The notes under the pieces were generated by a model. It was not told where the DNA came from and made no database searches. It saw only the letters and a program-made list of their open reading frames with translations. Positions 50,369-57,224 of a stretch of 64,000 bases of DNA are shown one piece after another. The DNA comes from an uncultured Chloroflexia bacterium. GTDB taxonomy: Bacteria; Chloroflexota; Limnocylindria; QHBO01. The position numbers and the translations under genes were made by a program. Location of the stretch: NCBI GenBank assembly GCA_963812115.1, contig CAWEUD010000041.1, positions 95,735 to 159,734 on the forward strand, written 5' to 3'. Positions within the stretch are counted from its first letter, which is position 1. Each line of letters opens with the position of its first letter.

Positions 50369-51615
50369 CCGAGGCCGATGCGCACGGCCGCATGGACCTC
50401 CGCGATCGCGTCCGGGGACTCTACGAGCTGAACCGCCAGCGGGGCCAGGCCGAGTGGTGCGGCGTGGAGTACGACTTCGTCTGCCCGTCGCACGGGCTCT
50501 ACCCCTTCCAGTGGTTCTGGGACTCGTGCTTCCACGCCATCGTGCTGAGCCACCTGGATCTCGAGCGGGCGGAATCCGAGATCACCACGCTCCTAGCCAA
50601 CCAGCAGCCGGACGGCTTCATCGCCCACGTCACGTTCTGGCAGCGGGAGCTGGACGACGTGGCGTCCTACCAGGTCGCCTGGCGTTCGCCGTGGCTCTCG
50701 GACAGCATGCAGCCGCCGGTCCTGGCGGAGGCGGTCGAGGCGGTGGCAGGACGCGGTCGGGGTTCCGCCTTCCTGCGCGAGGTGCTGCCGGCGGTGCGCC
50801 GCTACTACGACTGGTGCGATCGGGTGCGGGATCCCGACCGCGATGGCCTGGTCGCCGTCCTGGAGCCGCACGAGACGGGGATGGACCAGACGCCGAGCTT
50901 CGATGCCTACCTGGGCGTGACCGAGCTCACGCCGGCGGGGTTCGAGGCGGCATGGCGTCGGGCGGTTCCGTCCGGCGCGACGGAGTCGCGCGACCGCTTC
51001 GTGGTCGAGGACGTGGCGGTGAATGCGCTCTACGCGGAGAACCAGCGCGTCCTTGCCTCGCTGCATGCCCAGCTGGGCGAGGAGACCGCGGCGGCCGAGA
51101 TGCGGGAGCGCGCCGACCGGACCGCGCGGGCCCTCTTCACCCGCTGCTGGTCGCACGCCGATGCCGACTTCCACGGCCTGGCCGGACGCGACGAGGCGCA
51201 GCTCCCTGGATCGACCGTGGGCGGACTGCTGCCGGTGCTCCTGGCCGACGCACCCGACGAGGTCGTCGCGCGGATCGCGCAGCGCCTCGACGATCCGGAC
51301 GACTTCGGCGGCGCGTTCCCGGTCCCATCGGTGAGCAGGGCGCATCCCGCCTACAGCCCGGCACCGGCCTTCGGCAAGCTCCTGTGGCGCGGCCCGACCT
51401 GGATCAACACCAACTGGTACCTCGCGCGCGCGATGCGGCGCCACCAGCGGGTGGCGGTGGCGGAGCGAATCGAGCAGGCAAGCCTCGAGCTGGTCCGCCG
51501 CACCGGGTTCCGCGAGCACTACAACCCGGACACGGGCGAAGGCTACGGGGCCGAGGACTTCAGCTGGTCGGCCCTGGTGCTCGACATGCTGGAGGCGGGC
51601 GACGGCCGCGCCTGA
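50365..51615 (+). CDS. GH63/trehalase-like glycoside hydrolase (mannosyl/glucosylglycerate hydrolase-like)
   Basis: YPFQWFWDSCF, QPPV, ETGMD, WRGPTW, GFREHYNP, FSWS. Confidence 0.87.
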   Translation: MTEADAHGRMDLRDRVRGLYELNRQRGQAEWCGVEYDFVCPSHGLYPFQWFWDSCFHAIVLSHLDLERAESEITTLLANQQPDGFIAHVTFWQRELDDVASYQVAWRSPWLSDSMQPPVLAEAVEAVAGRGRGSAFLREVLPAVRRYYDWCDRVRDPDRDGLVAVLEPHETGMDQTPSFDAYLGVTELTPAGFEAAWRRAVPSGATESRDRFVVEDVAVNALYAENQRVLASLHAQLGEETAAAEMRERADRTARALFTRCWSHADADFHGLAGRDEAQLPGSTVGGLLPVLLADAPDEVVARIAQRLDDPDDFGGAFPVPSVSRAHPAYSPAPAFGKLLWRGPTWINTNWYLARAMRRHQRVAVAERIEQASLELVRRTGFREHYNPDTGEGYGAEDFSWSALVLDMLEAGDGRA

Positions 51616-51962: not shown

Positions 51963-52862
51963 TCAGCCCTTGACCGAACCTCCCAGGATGCCGCGCACGA
52001 AGTAGCGCTGCAGGCTGAAGAAGACGACCAGCGGCAACGCCATGCTGATGAACGCAGCCGCGGTGAGCAGGTGGTACCCCTGCCCCAGCGAGTTCACGAG
52101 GTTGGCGATCGTCACCGTCATGGGCGCCACATCCGCGGTGCCGCCGACCAGGATCAGGGCCACCAGCAGGTCGTTCCACACGAACAGGAACTGGAAGATG
52201 ACCAGTGACGCGATGGCCGGTACGGAGAGGGGGAGGACCAGCCGGAAGAAGGCAGTGGTGGGACTGGCCCCATCCAGGTAGGCCGACTCGAACATCTCCC
52301 GCGGTAACCCGCCGAAGAAGTTGCGGAGCAGGAAGATGGCGAACGGCAAGCCGAAGCCGGTGTGCGCCAGCCAGACGGCTGCGAACGAGCCGGTCAGGCC
52401 GAGCTGGGTGGTGAAGCTGAGGACCGGGATCAGCGCCGACTGGAGTGGGATGACCAGCAGGCCGACCACCAGGATGAAGAGCAGGTTGCGACCCGGGAAG
52501 TTCATCCAGGCGAAGGCGTAGGCGGCATAGGCGGCCACCAGGATCGGGATCACCGTGGCCGGAATCGTGATGAACAGGCTGTTGAGGAAGCTGATCCCCA
52601 TGTTGTTCTTGCCGAGGACGTCCTGGTAGTTCTGCAGCGTGAACTCGAAGGGGAGGCTGAACGCGTTCCACCACCCATTCGTGAGCACGTCGTTGGACGG
52701 GCGGAAGGAACTGACCAGGAGGGCCACGGTCGGAAGGAGCCACACGATGCTGATGAGAATCAGGATGGTATGTACCCCGGCCCGGCCGAACCAGCTCGGG
52801 CCACGGCCGGCCAGGTCGCCGCCCCCGGCGCCGGCGCCGGCCTTTGTCTCGAGGGCGGTCAT
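51963..52862 (-). CDS. Carbohydrate ABC permease (AglG-like)
   Basis: EAA loop ESAYLDGAS, FLFVWNDL, LQRYFVRG. Confidence 0.92.
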   Translation of the reverse strand: MTALETKAGAGAGGGDLAGRGPSWFGRAGVHTILILISIVWLLPTVALLVSSFRPSNDVLTNGWWNAFSLPFEFTLQNYQDVLGKNNMGISFLNSLFITIPATVIPILVAAYAAYAFAWMNFPGRNLLFILVVGLLVIPLQSALIPVLSFTTQLGLTGSFAAVWLAHTGFGLPFAIFLLRNFFGGLPREMFESAYLDGASPTTAFFRLVLPLSVPAIASLVIFQFLFVWNDLLVALILVGGTADVAPMTVTIANLVNSLGQGYHLLTAAAFISMALPLVVFFSLQRYFVRGILGGSVKG

Positions 52863-53821
52863 CGCATGGCCTCCTGTACCTGGAATCGCCGGATGTTGAT
52901 GAGCATCACCGGGATGATCGTGAGCAGCAGGATGATGGCGACCGCGGCCGCCGTCCCGGCATCGTGGTTGGTGAAGCGCGCGTGGTAGAAGAGGGTCCCG
53001 ATGACCTCCGTGCCGTACTGCCCGTTGGTCATGACGTACACGATGTCGAACGTCTTCAGCGCGGTGATGACGATGGTGGTCGCCACCACGGAGATCGTCG
53101 GAGCGAGCAGCGGGAGGATGATTCGGAAGAAGACCTGGAACTCGTTGGCGCCGTCCATCCGCGCCGCCTCGAGGAGCTCGGAGGAAATGCCCTTCAGGCC
53201 TGCCGAGAGGATGACCGTCGCGAAGCCGACGTACATCCAGATGCCCACGATGATCAGCATGAAGGTGTTGCGTGGCCAGACGGTCAGCCATGACTGCGGC
53301 TGCAGGCCGACGAGATCAACCGCCGCGTTCACCGTGCCGCGAGCCGGGTTGAAGTCGTACATGAAATTCCAGATGACGCCCGCGGCCACGAAACTGACGG
53401 CCAGCGGCAGGAAGACAAAGGCCTTGACCACCGTCTCGTAGCGAACTCGGTCGGAGATGACGGCGATGAGCAGGGCCATCAGCACCGCGACGCCCGCGAA
53501 GAACACGATCCACAGGACGGTGTTCAGGATGGTCTGCCAGAACGACCCATTCCCCACCAGCTCGGCGTAGTTGTCAAACCCCACGAACTGGCTGGAGTTG
53601 GCGTTTTGCAGGCTCAAGAAGAAGGTCGAGACGGTGGGGTAGATCAGGTACGCGATAAGGAACGCGAAGGCTGGCGCCAGCCACAGCCACGGCCGGTAGG
53701 TGGGCCTGCGGCGTTCCGGCAGCAAGGTCAACAGGCGCTCGGTCAACAGGGCGTAGCCTGCGGTGACCGCGGGCACGCCGATGACCACCACGATGGCCAT
53801 GCCCAACGTCCCGAAATTCAC
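52859..53821 (-). CDS. Carbohydrate ABC permease (AglF-like)
   Basis: FVGFDNY, ELLEAARMDGANE, FDIVYVMT.G. Confidence 0.92.
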   Translation of the reverse strand: MNFGTLGMAIVVVIGVPAVTAGYALLTERLLTLLPERRRPTYRPWLWLAPAFAFLIAYLIYPTVSTFFLSLQNANSSQFVGFDNYAELVGNGSFWQTILNTVLWIVFFAGVAVLMALLIAVISDRVRYETVVKAFVFLPLAVSFVAAGVIWNFMYDFNPARGTVNAAVDLVGLQPQSWLTVWPRNTFMLIIVGIWMYVGFATVILSAGLKGISSELLEAARMDGANEFQVFFRIILPLLAPTISVVATTIVITALKTFDIVYVMTNGQYGTEVIGTLFYHARFTNHDAGTAAAVAIILLLTIIPVMLINIRRFQVQEAMR

Positions 53822-53868
53822 TGGTCCTCCTCCTGCTGTTCCCCGGGCGCCTCAGTGGTTGAGAAGTG

Positions 53869-53900
53869 GGACGCAGGCCGGCCGGAGCCGGCCTGCGTCC
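53869..53900 (-). terminator. Intercistronic hairpin after sugar SBP gene
   Basis: GGACGCAGGCCGGC-CGGA-GCCGGCCTGCGTCC. Confidence 0.7.
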
Positions 53901-53916
53901 GTCAGGTCACGCGGCC

Positions 53917-55266
53917 CTATGAGCCGGCATTCGCGGCCCACTTGCCGAAGGCCTCGAATGCGTTCTTGATCTCGTCCGAGGTCCAGTCCTGCTGGCCCTG
54001 CCACCAGGCGTCGTAGACGTCGGGACCAGACTGGCGAAGGACGAAGTCCTCGATCCAGTCCGTCCCTGGCCAACCCTCGGAGCCAGCGCCGCTGTTGAGG
54101 CCGATGCCCCACGGTGACGTGCCGTCATCGTGGATCTTCTCGACCAGCGCGTTGAGGCCGTCCCAATCGCTCGGCACCTCGTAGCCGGCGTCACTGAACG
54201 CCTTCGGGTTGTACCAGATGAAGCCCTTGGCGGACGCCTTGATGAAGATGCCCACCAGGTGCCCGTCCACGCTGCCGTCGGCGATCCAGCCCTCGTTGTA
54301 CTGGCTCAGCGTCTCCTGGTCGAGCACGTTCTCGAGGGAGTAGAGATCGCCGCTTTGGGCGAAGGTCACCATCGCGCCGGGGCCGGGCAGGCCGGCCACG
54401 TCCGGCGGGTTGCCGCCCTCGATGCGGGTCGTCAGCGTGGCGTTGATGTCACGCGTGGACTCGTACTGGACCTCGACGCCGGTGCGGTCGACCCACGGCT
54501 GGATCATCTGCATGAAGGCGTCCTGCTCCGCATCGGCCCAGACCGCCAGGATGTTGACCGATCCACCCAGGTTGGCGTCATCCGCCGGAGGCGCGCTGGC
54601 CATCGGCGGATTTGCCGTGGCGGCCTCGCCGTACGCCGTCTGGCGCACCGATTCGGCCTCCTCCAGGATGCTGTCAAGGTTCCCCGGGTCCTGGACGTAG
54701 TCGAGGATCGCCTTGCGGAAGGCGGCCTCCATCTCGGCCGGCATCTTGTCCGAAGCATCGAAGCGAACGGTATCCGCGTCGATCATCGTCTGGGCCAAAC
54801 GTCGGGAGGTGTCATCCGGGTATACGTCCAGGGGGACCGCCGAGTTGGCGGTCAGCGCGCCGCCGATGCCGGGCCAGATGGCCTGGGCCTCGGCACTGAC
54901 GAGATAGCGCATGAGCGATGCGGCCTGCGGCGTGTCGGTGAACATGCCGAACAGGTCGCCAGCGGTCTCGACCGCGGAGAAGTTAATGGCCGGCATGGGG
55001 AAGAAGTCGTACGTCTCGCCCGCCACCGCCACATCGGGGAAGTTGTCCTCGAAGAAGCCGGTGATGAAGCTGGCCTGGTGGTGCAGGAAGCAGCCAGGCG
55101 GATCGGCAAAGAGGCAGTCGCCACCATTGCCGAAGTTGGTGTTCAGTGCATTGTCCGGCCCACCGGCAACGTAGGACGTGCCCCCGTTGTCACTGCTGCT
55201 GGAGCAGGCCGCCAGGATGAGGGCGGCCACGGCCAGCGTGGCCAGGAATCGCAGGCTTCGGGTCAT
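53917..55266 (-). CDS. Alpha-glucoside-type (AglE-like) ABC substrate-binding lipoprotein, apparently circularly permuted
   Basis: Lipobox LAAC; family motifs GNPPD, WYNP, GWPGTDW.ED, QASFI, RFDASD.MP all present but halves in swapped order; GGAGGAG RBS. Confidence 0.88.
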   Translation of the reverse strand: MTRSLRFLATLAVAALILAACSSSSDNGGTSYVAGGPDNALNTNFGNGGDCLFADPPGCFLHHQASFITGFFEDNFPDVAVAGETYDFFPMPAINFSAVETAGDLFGMFTDTPQAASLMRYLVSAEAQAIWPGIGGALTANSAVPLDVYPDDTSRRLAQTMIDADTVRFDASDKMPAEMEAAFRKAILDYVQDPGNLDSILEEAESVRQTAYGEAATANPPMASAPPADDANLGGSVNILAVWADAEQDAFMQMIQPWVDRTGVEVQYESTRDINATLTTRIEGGNPPDVAGLPGPGAMVTFAQSGDLYSLENVLDQETLSQYNEGWIADGSVDGHLVGIFIKASAKGFIWYNPKAFSDAGYEVPSDWDGLNALVEKIHDDGTSPWGIGLNSGAGSEGWPGTDWIEDFVLRQSGPDVYDAWWQGQQDWTSDEIKNAFEAFGKWAANAGS

Positions 55267-55411
55267 CGATGCTCCTCCAAGACAAGTCTGGCGACCGTCA
55301 CGCGGAACCCGCGCGTCATGTCGCTTCCCTGCATTCGCGGCCGTACTCGGGCGCCCGCGTGCCGGCTCTGTTTCGTTTTCCAACCTCCGTGTCTGTCGAG
55401 GTGCCAGTTGG

Positions 55412-56500
55412 CTAGGCAACCAGCGACTTCTCCGTCTCCGGGTCGAAGACGTGCAGCTTCTCGAGCGGAACTCCCAGCTCGATCTGGTCGCCCGCCCGGA
55501 CCTTTCGCTCGGACGGGATGAGGGCCACGATCTCGTTGCCCTCTGCCTGGGCGTGGATCAGCTCGTCGTTGCCCAGGTACTCCACCACGTCCACGCGCGC
55601 CGGGATGCGTACCGTTTCGCGCTGCCCGTCGACAACGTCGAGATGCTCCGGCCGGAAACCGATGAGCAGGTCGCTGCCCTTGGGCCGCTCGCGTGCCGCT
55701 TTTGCGGCTGCACCGGAGAGCGCCAGCTTGGCGCTCCCGAGCATGAGGTCATCACCCTCTGTGCGGGTGGTGGCGAAGTTCATTGCCGGCGAGCCGATGA
55801 AGCCCGCCACGAAGACGTTGTCTGGATGGTCGTACAGCTCCTGCGGGGTGCCGACCTGCTGCAGGATGCCGTCGCGCATGACCGCGATCCGATCGCCCAT
55901 GGTCATCGCCTCGACCTGGTCGTGGGTGACGTAGACGGTCGTCGTCCCCAGGCGCTGGTGGAGCCGCGCGATCTCGGCGCGCGTCTGCACGCGCAGCTTG
56001 GCATCCAGGTTCGAGAGCGGCTCGTCCATGAGGAACACGGCTGGCTCTCGTACGATGGCGCGTCCCAGGGCCACGCGCTGCCTCTGGCCGCCGGAGAGGG
56101 CCTTCGGCTTGCGGTCGAGGAAGCGATCGAGCCCGAGGATGCCTGCGCCCTCCTTGACCCGCCGATCGATCTCGTCCTTTGGCGTCTTGCGCAGCTTCAG
56201 GCCGAACGCGAGGTTGTCGTACACCGACATGTGCGGATACAGCGCGTAGCTCTGGAAGACCATGGCGATGTCGCGATCCTTGGGAGCCACGTCGTTCACG
56301 ACCCGGTCGCCGATGAGGAGCTTGCCATCGCTGATCGTCTCGAGCCCGGCCACGCAGCGCAGCGCGGTCGTCTTGCCGCAGCCGGAGGGCCCGACCAGGA
56401 CGAGGAACTCCCCGTCCGCGACCTCCAGGTTGAGGTCGTTCACGGCGACCACGTCGGCGCTGTAGCGCTTGAACACGTGGTCAAAGGTCACGGTTGCCAT
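55412..56500 (-). CDS. Sugar ABC ATP-binding protein (MalK/MsmX family)
   Basis: GPSGCGKTT, VFQSYALYPHM, LSGGQRQR, DEPLSNLDAKLR, TOBE domain. Confidence 0.95.
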   Translation of the reverse strand: MATVTFDHVFKRYSADVVAVNDLNLEVADGEFLVLVGPSGCGKTTALRCVAGLETISDGKLLIGDRVVNDVAPKDRDIAMVFQSYALYPHMSVYDNLAFGLKLRKTPKDEIDRRVKEGAGILGLDRFLDRKPKALSGGQRQRVALGRAIVREPAVFLMDEPLSNLDAKLRVQTRAEIARLHQRLGTTTVYVTHDQVEAMTMGDRIAVMRDGILQQVGTPQELYDHPDNVFVAGFIGSPAMNFATTRTEGDDLMLGSAKLALSGAAAKAARERPKGSDLLIGFRPEHLDVVDGQRETVRIPARVDVVEYLGNDELIHAQAEGNEIVALIPSERKVRAGDQIELGVPLEKLHVFDPETEKSLVA

Positions 56501-56618
56501 GCAGCATCGTCCTCCAGGAGGGGTGCTTCCCGGCTCGGATGGGCGGAGCACCGCGAGGCTGTCATCATAGACCACGTCGCAAGTCGGTAACCCTCAACGT
56601 CAACAAAAGGTGGAGCGC

Positions 56619-57224
56619 ATGCCACCCCATCGGCCGATCCTGGATCGAATCCCGGGGATGGCGCGTCGGGAACCGCTGCCGTCGCTCTACGATCGGCATC
56701 CGAGGGCCGGCACGGCCCAGCGACGCCCTCGCGGGCTGGTGATCGTGCCGATCGATGAGATCGTGGGGACGATCCGCCATCCATCCCAGAACACCGATGA
56801 CTTCCTGCCGCTGCCCTACCTCCGTGGCAAGAACTGGAGCCAGCGCTGGCGGCGGATCCAGCAGGGCGTGCAGGACCTCGCGGTCATGCCGGCCATCGAC
56901 CTCGTCAAGGTCGGCGACGAGTACTACGTGGCCGACGGCCACAACCGGGTTGCCGCCGCTCGTGCCGTTGGCGCGGTCGCGATCGACGCCGACGTGACGG
57001 AGCTGGTCATGGCGGGGGAGCGGTCCGGGCCGGAGGATCGGCAGACGCACGAGGGCGTTGCCTCGGCGCTCGTCGGCTCCGACGAGGTGCGCCAGGCGGC
57101 GGCGGGACGCCAGTCGCGGACCGCCGAGCATCGCTCGAACGTGGACGAGCTGCGGCGCGAGGACCTGACCATCGGGGGCGAGTTCGCCGATGCCGAGACC
57201 GGGCAGGCGAGCGATGAGCGGTGA
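56619..57224 (+). CDS. ParB/Srx-like N-terminal domain protein
   Basis: IVG...DF.PL...RW..I...PAIDL.KVGDEYYVADGHNRV; no HTH evident. Confidence 0.78.
   Translation: MPPHRPILDRIPGMARREPLPSLYDRHPRAGTAQRRPRGLVIVPIDEIVGTIRHPSQNTDDFLPLPYLRGKNWSQRWRRIQQGVQDLAVMPAIDLVKVGDEYYVADGHNRVAAARAVGAVAIDADVTELVMAGERSGPEDRQTHEGVASALVGSDEVRQAAAGRQSRTAEHRSNVDELRREDLTIGGEFADAETGQASDER

Follow-up and report, generated by a model that had tools for sequence, protein, structure and literature searches.

The DNA analysed here, referred to as the window, is a stretch of 64,000 nucleotides from contig CAWEUD010000041.1 (assembly GCA_963812115.1) of an uncultured Chloroflexia bacterium assigned to the Limnocylindria (Chloroflexota). 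On its minus strand lies an operon for an ATP-binding cassette (ABC) importer, in which the binding-protein gene at 53917-55266 encodes a 449-residue lipoprotein, P0001. This protein is a genuine natural circular permutant of a sugar-binding lipoprotein: the half that ends the chain of its canonical relatives (the C-block) precedes the half that begins it (the N-block). Translation was read from the ATG at 55266, which is the start position shared by the homologs of P0001; the minus-strand open reading frame (ORF) can also be read as 53917-55419 by way of an upstream TTG. The chain begins with MTRSLRFLATLAVAALILAAC, a lipoprotein signal containing the lipobox LAAC at residues 18-21. A MalK-like ATPase and two permeases adjoin the gene, which is the otherwise normal importer operon described in an earlier reading made from the letters of this DNA (hereafter, the sequence-only reading). 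The features are located in Table 1.

Table 1. Features of the permuted binding-protein gene and of its neighbours in the window
Feature	Positions	Strand	Basis and remarks
Lipoprotein signal peptide, residues 1-21, Cys21 lipidated	55204..55266	-	Translation; lipobox LAAC
New short Gly/Ser-rich tether, from lipid-anchored Cys to first conserved residue (residues 22-31)	55174..55203	-	Translation
C-block, residues 32-212 (canonical 256-436)	54631..55173	-	BLASTP, 68% identity, E 3e-89
Pro/Ala-rich linker, old C-terminus to old N-terminus, residues 213-233	54568..54630	-	
N-block, residues 234-447 (canonical about 41-254)	53926..54567	-	BLASTP, 65% identity, E 2e-108
Two-residue GS tail and stop codon, directly after the permutation breakpoint	53917..53925	-	Translation
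GC-rich inverted repeat, 13-bp stems, 6-nt loop	53869..53900	-	Read from sequence; in the 95-nt spacer from the binding-protein stop to permease 1
MalK/UgpC-like ABC ATPase, upstream in the operon	55412..56575	-	Pfam ABC_tran, OB_MalK, TOBE_2; NCBIfam UgpC subfamily, 492 bits (cutoff 432)
ABC permease 1 (MalF/UgpA-like)	52859..53821	-	Pfam BPD_transp_1; NCBIfam matches under cutoffs
ABC permease 2 (MalG/UgpE-like)	51963..52862	-	Pfam BPD_transp_1; ATG overlaps the permease 1 stop
Convergent MGH1-like GH63 glycoside hydrolase	about 50392..51615	+	Pfam MGH1-like_GH, 273.6 bits; start estimated

Block order and genomic setting of the permuted gene

The swapped order was evident from BLASTP against the canonical relative P0061 (438 residues), which gave two local matches in reversed order. 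Residues 216-447 of P0001 matched P0061 23-254 with 65% identity (E 2e-108), and residues 32-212 matched P0061 256-436 with 68% identity (E 3e-89). Both E-values lie far beyond chance, and no collinear full-length alignment to canonical relatives was obtained. The canonical chain runs uninterrupted through ...FGAWAADA-DYVAGGP..., whereas the permuted chain ends with ...FGKWAANAGS and a stop codon, and its mature part, past a 10-residue Gly/Ser tether, opens with YVAGGP. A swap of this kind, in which the signal peptide and lipobox are retained and the chain is opened at the FG..|YV.GG junction, had been proposed in the sequence-only reading. The alignment with P0061 places the opening at that junction, the proposed Pro/Ala-rich linker is present at 213-233, and the block boundaries were right to within 1-2 residues.

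Relatives of P0001 were drawn from a search of 5.8 billion proteins (HMMER scores), where they fell into two groups. P0002-P0060 exhibited 63-88% identity to P0001 over about 100% of the query; from P0061 onward, HMMER scores were very high and the best local alignment covered 47-54% only. The split between these groups is explained by the reversed two-piece matching found for P0061. Architecture was assigned to 280 fetched proteins by BLAST with the two blocks, which identified the permuted order (C-N) in 60 and the canonical order (N-C) in 200, next to five N-C-N-C, two C-N-C, and one N-N-C chains and 12 single-block fragments. Among 1.84 billion representatives (50% clustering), only one of the 150 best matches, P0022, aligned in a single collinear stretch, indicating that the permuted clade is narrow. 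The remaining best 150 matched P0001 in two stretches (canonical) or three (doubles).

Alignment of the 60 permuted proteins revealed an invariant C21. A lipobox-like motif was detected by regular expression in 59 of them, the 60th (P0014) having LDAC, and in all 61 canonical relatives. The linker between the blocks consists of 21 residues in 54 proteins and 20 residues in the other six, and its residues A223, P227, D230, and L233 are invariant. It has become a length-constrained structural element, unlike the variable N-terminal tether of the canonical proteins. The tail beyond the last conserved block measures 0-10 residues, with a median of 1.

In a Pfam scan, residues 247-444 of P0001 matched SBP_bac_1 (PF01547) on profile positions 4-199 of 307 with 69.8 bits (cutoff 26). 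SBP_bac_8 reached 55.4 bits (cutoff 27), and SBP_bac_11 was also among the matches; P0061 carries PF13416 and PF01547. When residues 22-232 were scanned alone, no Pfam family was found even at E<=10, so that the homology of the C-block is established by BLAST to canonical relatives. A sequence search of the PDB likewise aligned about 240-445 of P0001 only, against the first about 230-260 residues of BxlE, NagB2, ppGBP, and AcbH. The features of the family that are present comprise the Pfam SBP_bac_1 match above the gathering score, the C-terminal domain part, and two BPD_transp_1 permeases with a MalK-type ATPase. P0001 is hence homologous to the MalE-like type II SBP_bac_1 family, of which it is a topological variant lacking the canonical collinear order. 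The label 'AglE', used for it in the sequence-only reading, goes back solely to canonical relatives that were named automatically by JGI as 'alpha-glucoside transport system substrate-binding protein'. None of the curated NCBIfam models matched by the protein supported this name; the best of them for P0001, chitin_NgcE, scored 54 bits, far under its cutoff of 399.65.

The genomic setting was examined by a scan of one genome per species, which gave 22 related loci, consisting of 10 permuted (L004-L013), 10 canonical (L014-L023), and 2 distant ones. By tblastn with the neighbours in the window, the gene order metallophosphoesterase, orf204 (see below), ATPase, binding protein, permease 1, permease 2, (GH63), ABC-2 permease was found to be common to permuted loci and to canonical loci such as L016, L017, L019, and L022. 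Because both the operon and its flanks are shared, the permuted gene is the positional ortholog of the canonical gene. The arrangement of the ATPase and two permeases was present in all 10 permuted loci, the ATPase of L006 being partial at a contig end.

Several neighbouring elements were also noted. The 204-residue conserved ORF (orf204, 56610-57224, plus strand), to which a Pfam scan assigned no family, and the ATPase gene point away from each other, and the metallophosphoesterase gene comes after orf204. Synteny of the pair of orf204 and metallophosphoesterase with the operon was seen in most permuted loci and in several canonical ones. Besides the window, L004 and the canonical loci L015, L018, and L023 have the GH63 hydrolase next to the operon. 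The window copy scored 152.9 bits against the NCBIfam glucosylglycerate hydrolase, under the cutoff of 550, and is related to glucosylglycerate and mannosylglycerate hydrolases. As a speculation, this neighbour suggests that the substrate may be an alpha-glucoside or a solute of the glycosyl-glycerate type. The hairpin formed by the inverted repeat behind the binding-protein gene may be an intra-operon attenuator or an RNA stabiliser, which would lift the ratio of binding protein to permease.

Predicted fold and position of the lipid anchor

Models were predicted by AlphaFold2 (AF2) for P0001 from the 60-sequence permuted alignment and for P0061 from 61 sequences. The former reached a predicted local distance difference test score (pLDDT) of 76.8 and a predicted template-modelling score (pTM) of 0.77, and the latter 85.2 and 0.82. 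In the P0001 model, the stretches of low confidence are residues 14-57 (pLDDT <50), including the tether, and 389-398, and the linker was assigned pLDDT 81-96. The helices and strands of the C-block are the canonical ones at an offset of -224 (e.g., strand 283-288 to 59-63 and helix 418-437 to 194-211), and those of the N-block are the canonical ones at an offset of +193 (strand 43-48 to 236-241 and helix 238-251 to 431-445). One short helix, canonical 274-277, breaks this otherwise one-to-one correspondence, as it has no counterpart in the N-terminal segment of low confidence. The fold appears to be kept in the model, because the order of its secondary-structure elements is an exact cyclic shift of the canonical order.

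The models were further compared with solved structures. As a control, the canonical model was superposed on AcbH (3oo6_A), giving Z 41.3 and a root-mean-square deviation (rmsd) of 2.5 over 375 residues, with model residues 40-437 placed on chain residues 15-404. The sequential alignment of the permuted model to the same chain (VIA-align) placed only residues 233-449 on 15-227, with Z 11.3 and rmsd 3.0 over 209 residues. The same held for the group of AcbH (3oo6), the T. thermophilus glucose-binding protein (2b3b), ppGBP (5xpj), and BxlE (3vxb), all of which have the canonical order and 19-25% identity. The canonical model matched them along its entire length, with Z 38-41 over 372-378 residues, whereas the permuted model placed its N-block on their first about 220-260 residues (Z 10-11). 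Sequential alignment of the permuted model was of half length in 50 of the 50 matches listed, which is the signature expected of a circular permutant. Foldseek of the permuted model against the PDB gave sugar-binder matches of half length only, with template-modelling (TM) scores of 0.3-0.36. Long Foldseek alignments to OppA-type proteins were discarded as meaningless, their rmsd being 17-18 Å.

The breakpoint corresponds to about AcbH residue 227/228. It follows the canonical helix 238-251, where a loop of about 30 residues begins; no other internal stretch of the canonical model was predicted with confidence as low as in this loop (pLDDT 56 at 261-270). In the topology of MalE, the N-lobe is composed of the first 110 residues or so together with a later segment, and the C-lobe lies between them. 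By comparison with these MalE domain boundaries, we take the breakpoint loop to be located in the C-lobe. The chain would then open in a long surface loop of the C-lobe, and the lipid anchor would hang from this lobe instead of the N-lobe. Such a shift of the anchor would be accompanied by a shorter tether, as the segment following the lipidated Cys has 7-22 residues (median 13) in the permuted proteins vs 5-38 residues (median 19) in the canonical ones.

A local feature of the permuted proteins was also observed in the N-block. Most of them carry GAGSEGWPGTDW at P0001 residues 389-398 (window about 54073-54102), a low-confidence loop of the model, and a shorter 'AASGWPGTDW' is found at this site in the canonical proteins and in the basal permuted proteins P0059 and P0060. 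The longer form is probably a small insertion gained after the permutation.

Descent and proposed route of the permutation

A maximum-likelihood tree was constructed for 132 proteins (60 permuted, 61 close canonical, and 11 distant canonical as the outgroup), whose blocks were aligned separately and then concatenated. All 60 permuted proteins were united in one clade, with 95 in the Shimodaira-Hasegawa-like approximate likelihood-ratio test (SH-aLRT). As other canonical proteins surround both this clade and its sister group (19 canonical clusters, support 99), one change of state suffices. A tree made from the two permeases only (22 rows) also united the 11 permuted-gene loci, with an ultrafast bootstrap (UFBoot) value of 98 and an SH-aLRT value of 94. 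The permutation is thus of single origin, within Limnocylindria.

It is highly probable that P0001 is a naturally permuted and functional binding lipoprotein of a carbohydrate importer, which was rearranged in place in one Limnocylindria ancestor, most likely by duplication and trimming. The starting point would be the canonical gene of the operon, composed of signal peptide, tether, N-block, and C-block. Its in-frame tandem duplication or fusion, as the most likely route, would produce signal-N-C-tether-N-C, from which the first N-block and the last C-block would be lost while the signal peptide was kept. This would leave the signal peptide, a new short tether, the C-block, the 21-residue linker, the N-block, and a stop. 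The linker would derive from the old post-lipobox tether; that of P0001 aligns weakly with the corresponding tether of P0061 by BLASTP. The protein so formed would keep its fold and deliver sugar, which may be an alpha-glucoside or glycosyl-glycerate type solute, to the adjoining two permeases and MalK-like ATPase.

Tandem double binding proteins, which the sequence-only reading had suggested as intermediates, do occur in the wider family; at 33-38% identity to P0001, they do not represent its direct ancestor. Three of them, P0123, P0124, and P0136, are full N-C-N-C chains of 853-896 residues outside the P0001 lineage, and they share with P0001 the junction from C-block through tether to N-block. 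Their two copies are 74.8%, 71.1%, and 81.1% identical, respectively, and this clear divergence identifies them as real genes. P0001 31-446 aligned collinearly over the C1-N2 junction of P0123, and the segment between the copies of the doubles resembles a mature N-terminal tether. These observations suggest that duplication and trimming is a route that the family has used. The doubles P0134 and P0150 were dropped as support, as their copies are 100% identical and may be assembly artefacts. P0278 and P0149, considered as C-N-C intermediates, start in the middle of a block and have no signal peptide, and are 5'-truncated fragments of doubles.

Other unusual architectures were seen in the course of the search. 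P0122 (997 residues) fuses the same binding-protein family to a Peripla_BP_4 (xylose-type) module. P0131-P0133 (1290-1602 residues) are fusions with a SARP-type transcription activator, and P0132 contains protein kinase domains as well. The doubles P0123, P0124, and P0136 are themselves lipoproteins with two complete binding modules per chain.

The order could also have been produced by another route, either a single intragenic move of the 543-bp C-block behind the lipobox or a fission followed by re-fusion in reverse order. Such an event would fit the 95-nt spacer after the stop, in which no remnant of a second C-block was found, only the GC-rich hairpin. It would also fit a search for longer relatives, in which neither a double nor a partly trimmed intermediate turned up near the permuted clade, as well as the weak and low-complexity nature of the resemblance between linker and tether. 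A direct move, however, needs three precise in-frame breakpoints at once, whereas doubles of the wider family, among them three whose copies have diverged, already possess the same C-to-tether-to-N junction, and the 21-residue linker is near the median canonical tether length of 19. We consider this other route to be rather unlikely.

The distribution of the permuted form was examined in 301 genomes sampled evenly from the class, 121 of which had a match, including four unpublished ones (G096, G112, G159, and G246) of which the statements on the permuted form are independent. A collinear permuted match was found in 9 of the 301, all belonging to family f1, namely G000, G201, G213, and G276 of genus g1, G111 and G141 of g12, and G054, G147, and G189 of g6. 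Other species gave the canonical two-piece match, namely G180, G183, and G243 of g6 and G168, G186, and G234 of g12, and no genome listed from this sample contained both forms at E<=1e-40. In a DNA comparison of the window with L004, the flanks (ATPase, orf204, metallophosphoesterase, PAC2, GH63, and ABC-2) were 88-94% identical, and the region of about 52361-55580, which extends from the binding-protein gene through permease 1 into the first part of permease 2, was 64-79% identical. This island of divergence suggests either a cassette replacement by recombination or fast local evolution.

It might be imagined from this pattern that the permuted form was fixed adaptively, that the binding-protein and permease genes have co-evolved since, and that they are exchanged by recombination as a cassette between Limnocylindria lineages. 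The shift of the anchor to the C-lobe on a shorter tether would, in that event, alter the approach of the binding protein to the permeases. The divergence island, the exclusive and patchy occurrence of the two forms in g6 and g12, and the monophyly of the permeases would all be explained. We regard this adaptive scenario as unlikely; if true, it would offer the first orthologous operon pair for a direct test of the tethering hypothesis raised for TpMglB-2, a permuted lipoprotein of Treponema pallidum described below.

That the two blocks stem from two different binding-protein genes fused into a chimera is very improbable. For TpMglB-2, an acquisition of the permuted part from another gene was considered by the authors (PMC4990184). 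In the present case, both halves are 65-68% identical to one canonical protein. Moreover, when a tree was built from each block by itself, the permuted proteins were again monophyletic, with support of 93 (N block) and 92 (C block), and their sister group was once more that of the 19 clusters. As this group was defined on the concatenated tree, the test by halves is not fully independent. The agreement of the half-trees indicates that both halves descend from one canonical ancestor and not from two genes.

It is just as improbable that the rearranged gene is a decaying relic that makes no working binding protein, the transporter using another one. The lower pLDDT of the permuted model (76.8, under 85.2 for the canonical one) might be taken in favour of decay. 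Against this, the ORF was intact in all 12 copies checked, consisting of the 10 permuted loci plus G111 and G054; flags of 'stops inside' for the latter two were traced to terminal stop codons. The ratio of non-synonymous to synonymous substitutions (dN/dS, pairwise Nei-Gojobori) between the window gene and its ten orthologs was 0.21-0.39 in 10 of 10 comparisons. By part, the values were 0.13-0.41 for the C block, 0.23-0.40 for the N block, and 0.18-1.16 for the linker, which is noisier with its 21 codons. The permuted gene is under purifying selection. Furthermore, the permuted proteins keep a fixed linker length and a conserved lipobox, and their clade has had time to diverge to as little as 63% identity. 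The genome of the window (2.16 Mb, 79% complete) contains no close canonical copy, its next match being at E 2.6e-6. The permuted protein is apparently functional, as judged from these traces in its sequence.

A misassembly of the canonical gene may be dismissed as extremely improbable, for even though the window belongs to a metagenome-assembled genome (MAG) of 44 contigs and 79% completeness, and though bridging of the junctions was seen in Logan contigs, an identical block order is present in 60 protein clusters, which derive from JGI, ENA, NCBI, and Logan assemblies, and in 10 species-representative genomes. The latter (L004-L013) are Limnocylindria or 'Chloroflexia' MAGs from several projects, some with the gene on contigs of 175-725 kb. 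The order is kept in spite of divergence to 63-88% identity, and this divergence excludes a shared erroneous template. Logan contigs from three samples of one study bridge both junctions with scattered single-base differences from the window (X1 record 2, 53887-54720; X1 record 3, 54691-55500; X2 record 9, 54394-55154). As the window itself may stem from one of these samples, the independent weight comes mainly from the ten diverged genomes. The swapped order is thus not an assembly artefact, and both the recurrence of the order in relatives and the spanning of the junctions, to which the sequence-only reading had looked, were found.

The reading preferred here, a functional permutant made in place by duplication and trimming in a single ancestor, has several points weighing against it. 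Genera g6 and g12 each hold permuted and canonical forms, which means either that the cassette moves between lineages or that these genera are broad. The support for permuted monophyly is good and not maximal (92-98). Synonymous divergence (dS) is 0.5-0.8 in a GC-rich genome, so that the dN/dS values are approximate. The RNA run X7 gave only pieces of 33-41 nt with 90-95% likeness and loose at both ends, which are uninformative on expression. As for the route, the doubles are distant from P0001, two of the five have identical copies, and intermediates close to the clade were missing from the search described above. The permuted AF2 model is of moderate quality, with the new N-terminal segment 14-57 below 50, and conservation of the whole fold is suggested by the 65-68% sequence identity together with the predicted secondary-structure order. 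Lastly, the assignment of the lobes leans on the MalE boundaries given above.

Relation to known binding proteins and significance

Natural permutation has been described in other clusters of binding proteins. Brautigam et al. reported TpMglB-2 (Tp0684) of T. pallidum as a circularly permuted glucose-binding lipoprotein, for which the label 'Type Ic / Cluster Bc' was introduced, and according to that report it binds glucose, closes on binding, and is discussed speculatively in connection with membrane tethering (2016, PMC4990184). That it binds glucose and changes its conformation indicates that a permuted binding protein can work. The same report describes a displacement of about 70-100 N-lobe residues, an additional, fourth crossing of the hinge, and 13% identity between the permuted part and canonical MglB (PMC4990184). 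TpMglB-2 and P0001 have in common the natural permutation of a sugar-binding ABC lipoprotein whose gene stands beside permease and ATPase genes. They differ in that TpMglB-2 is of Type I / cluster B and MglB-like, whereas P0001 belongs to SBP_bac_1 and type II, with about 180 residues moved, 65-68% identity to canonical proteins, and syntenic canonical orthologs. P0001 is not of the Type Ic / Cluster Bc kind, as it has no cluster-B Pfam family and its best solved relatives are of type II.

Within the periplasmic binding-protein superfamily, the CPSARST paper lists natural permutation relations among glycine-betaine binders (OpuAC and ProX), molybdate binders, and CysB at <24% identity (PMC2395249). 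Those cases, as presented there, are ancient, recognised at the level of structure, and lie between families, whereas that of P0001 is recent and inside one orthologous group. Its canonical Limnocylindria relatives (P0061 and loci L014-L023) share with it 65-68% identity in both blocks, the lipoprotein signal, the operon with its flanks, and the secondary-structure elements. They differ in having the opposite block order, no 21-residue internal linker, and a variable tether (5-38 residues) on the N-block. A full-text literature search, covering titles and the starts of abstracts with few subscription journals, found no natural permutation in the MalE-like SBP_bac_1 group. Engineered circular permutants of maltose-binding protein exist. 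What is known is thus natural permutation in other binding-protein clusters, and what is new is a recent case that is obvious from sequence and has canonical orthologs in synteny with it.

For annotation, the case means that Pfam detects half of the protein and that length-based or collinear methods would misjudge permutants. For protein engineering, it provides a naturally validated split or permutation site in a MalE-like biosensor scaffold. Permutations are usually known between distant proteins, which no longer reveal how the change came about or what followed from it, whereas a natural pair at 65-68% identity is available here. This pair addresses the tolerance of a two-lobed hinge-bending receptor to new termini and a 21-residue bridge, the question whether docking to an ABC importer depends on where the lipid tether is attached and how long it is, as raised for TpMglB-2, and the course of a permutation by duplication when the signal peptide must be kept.

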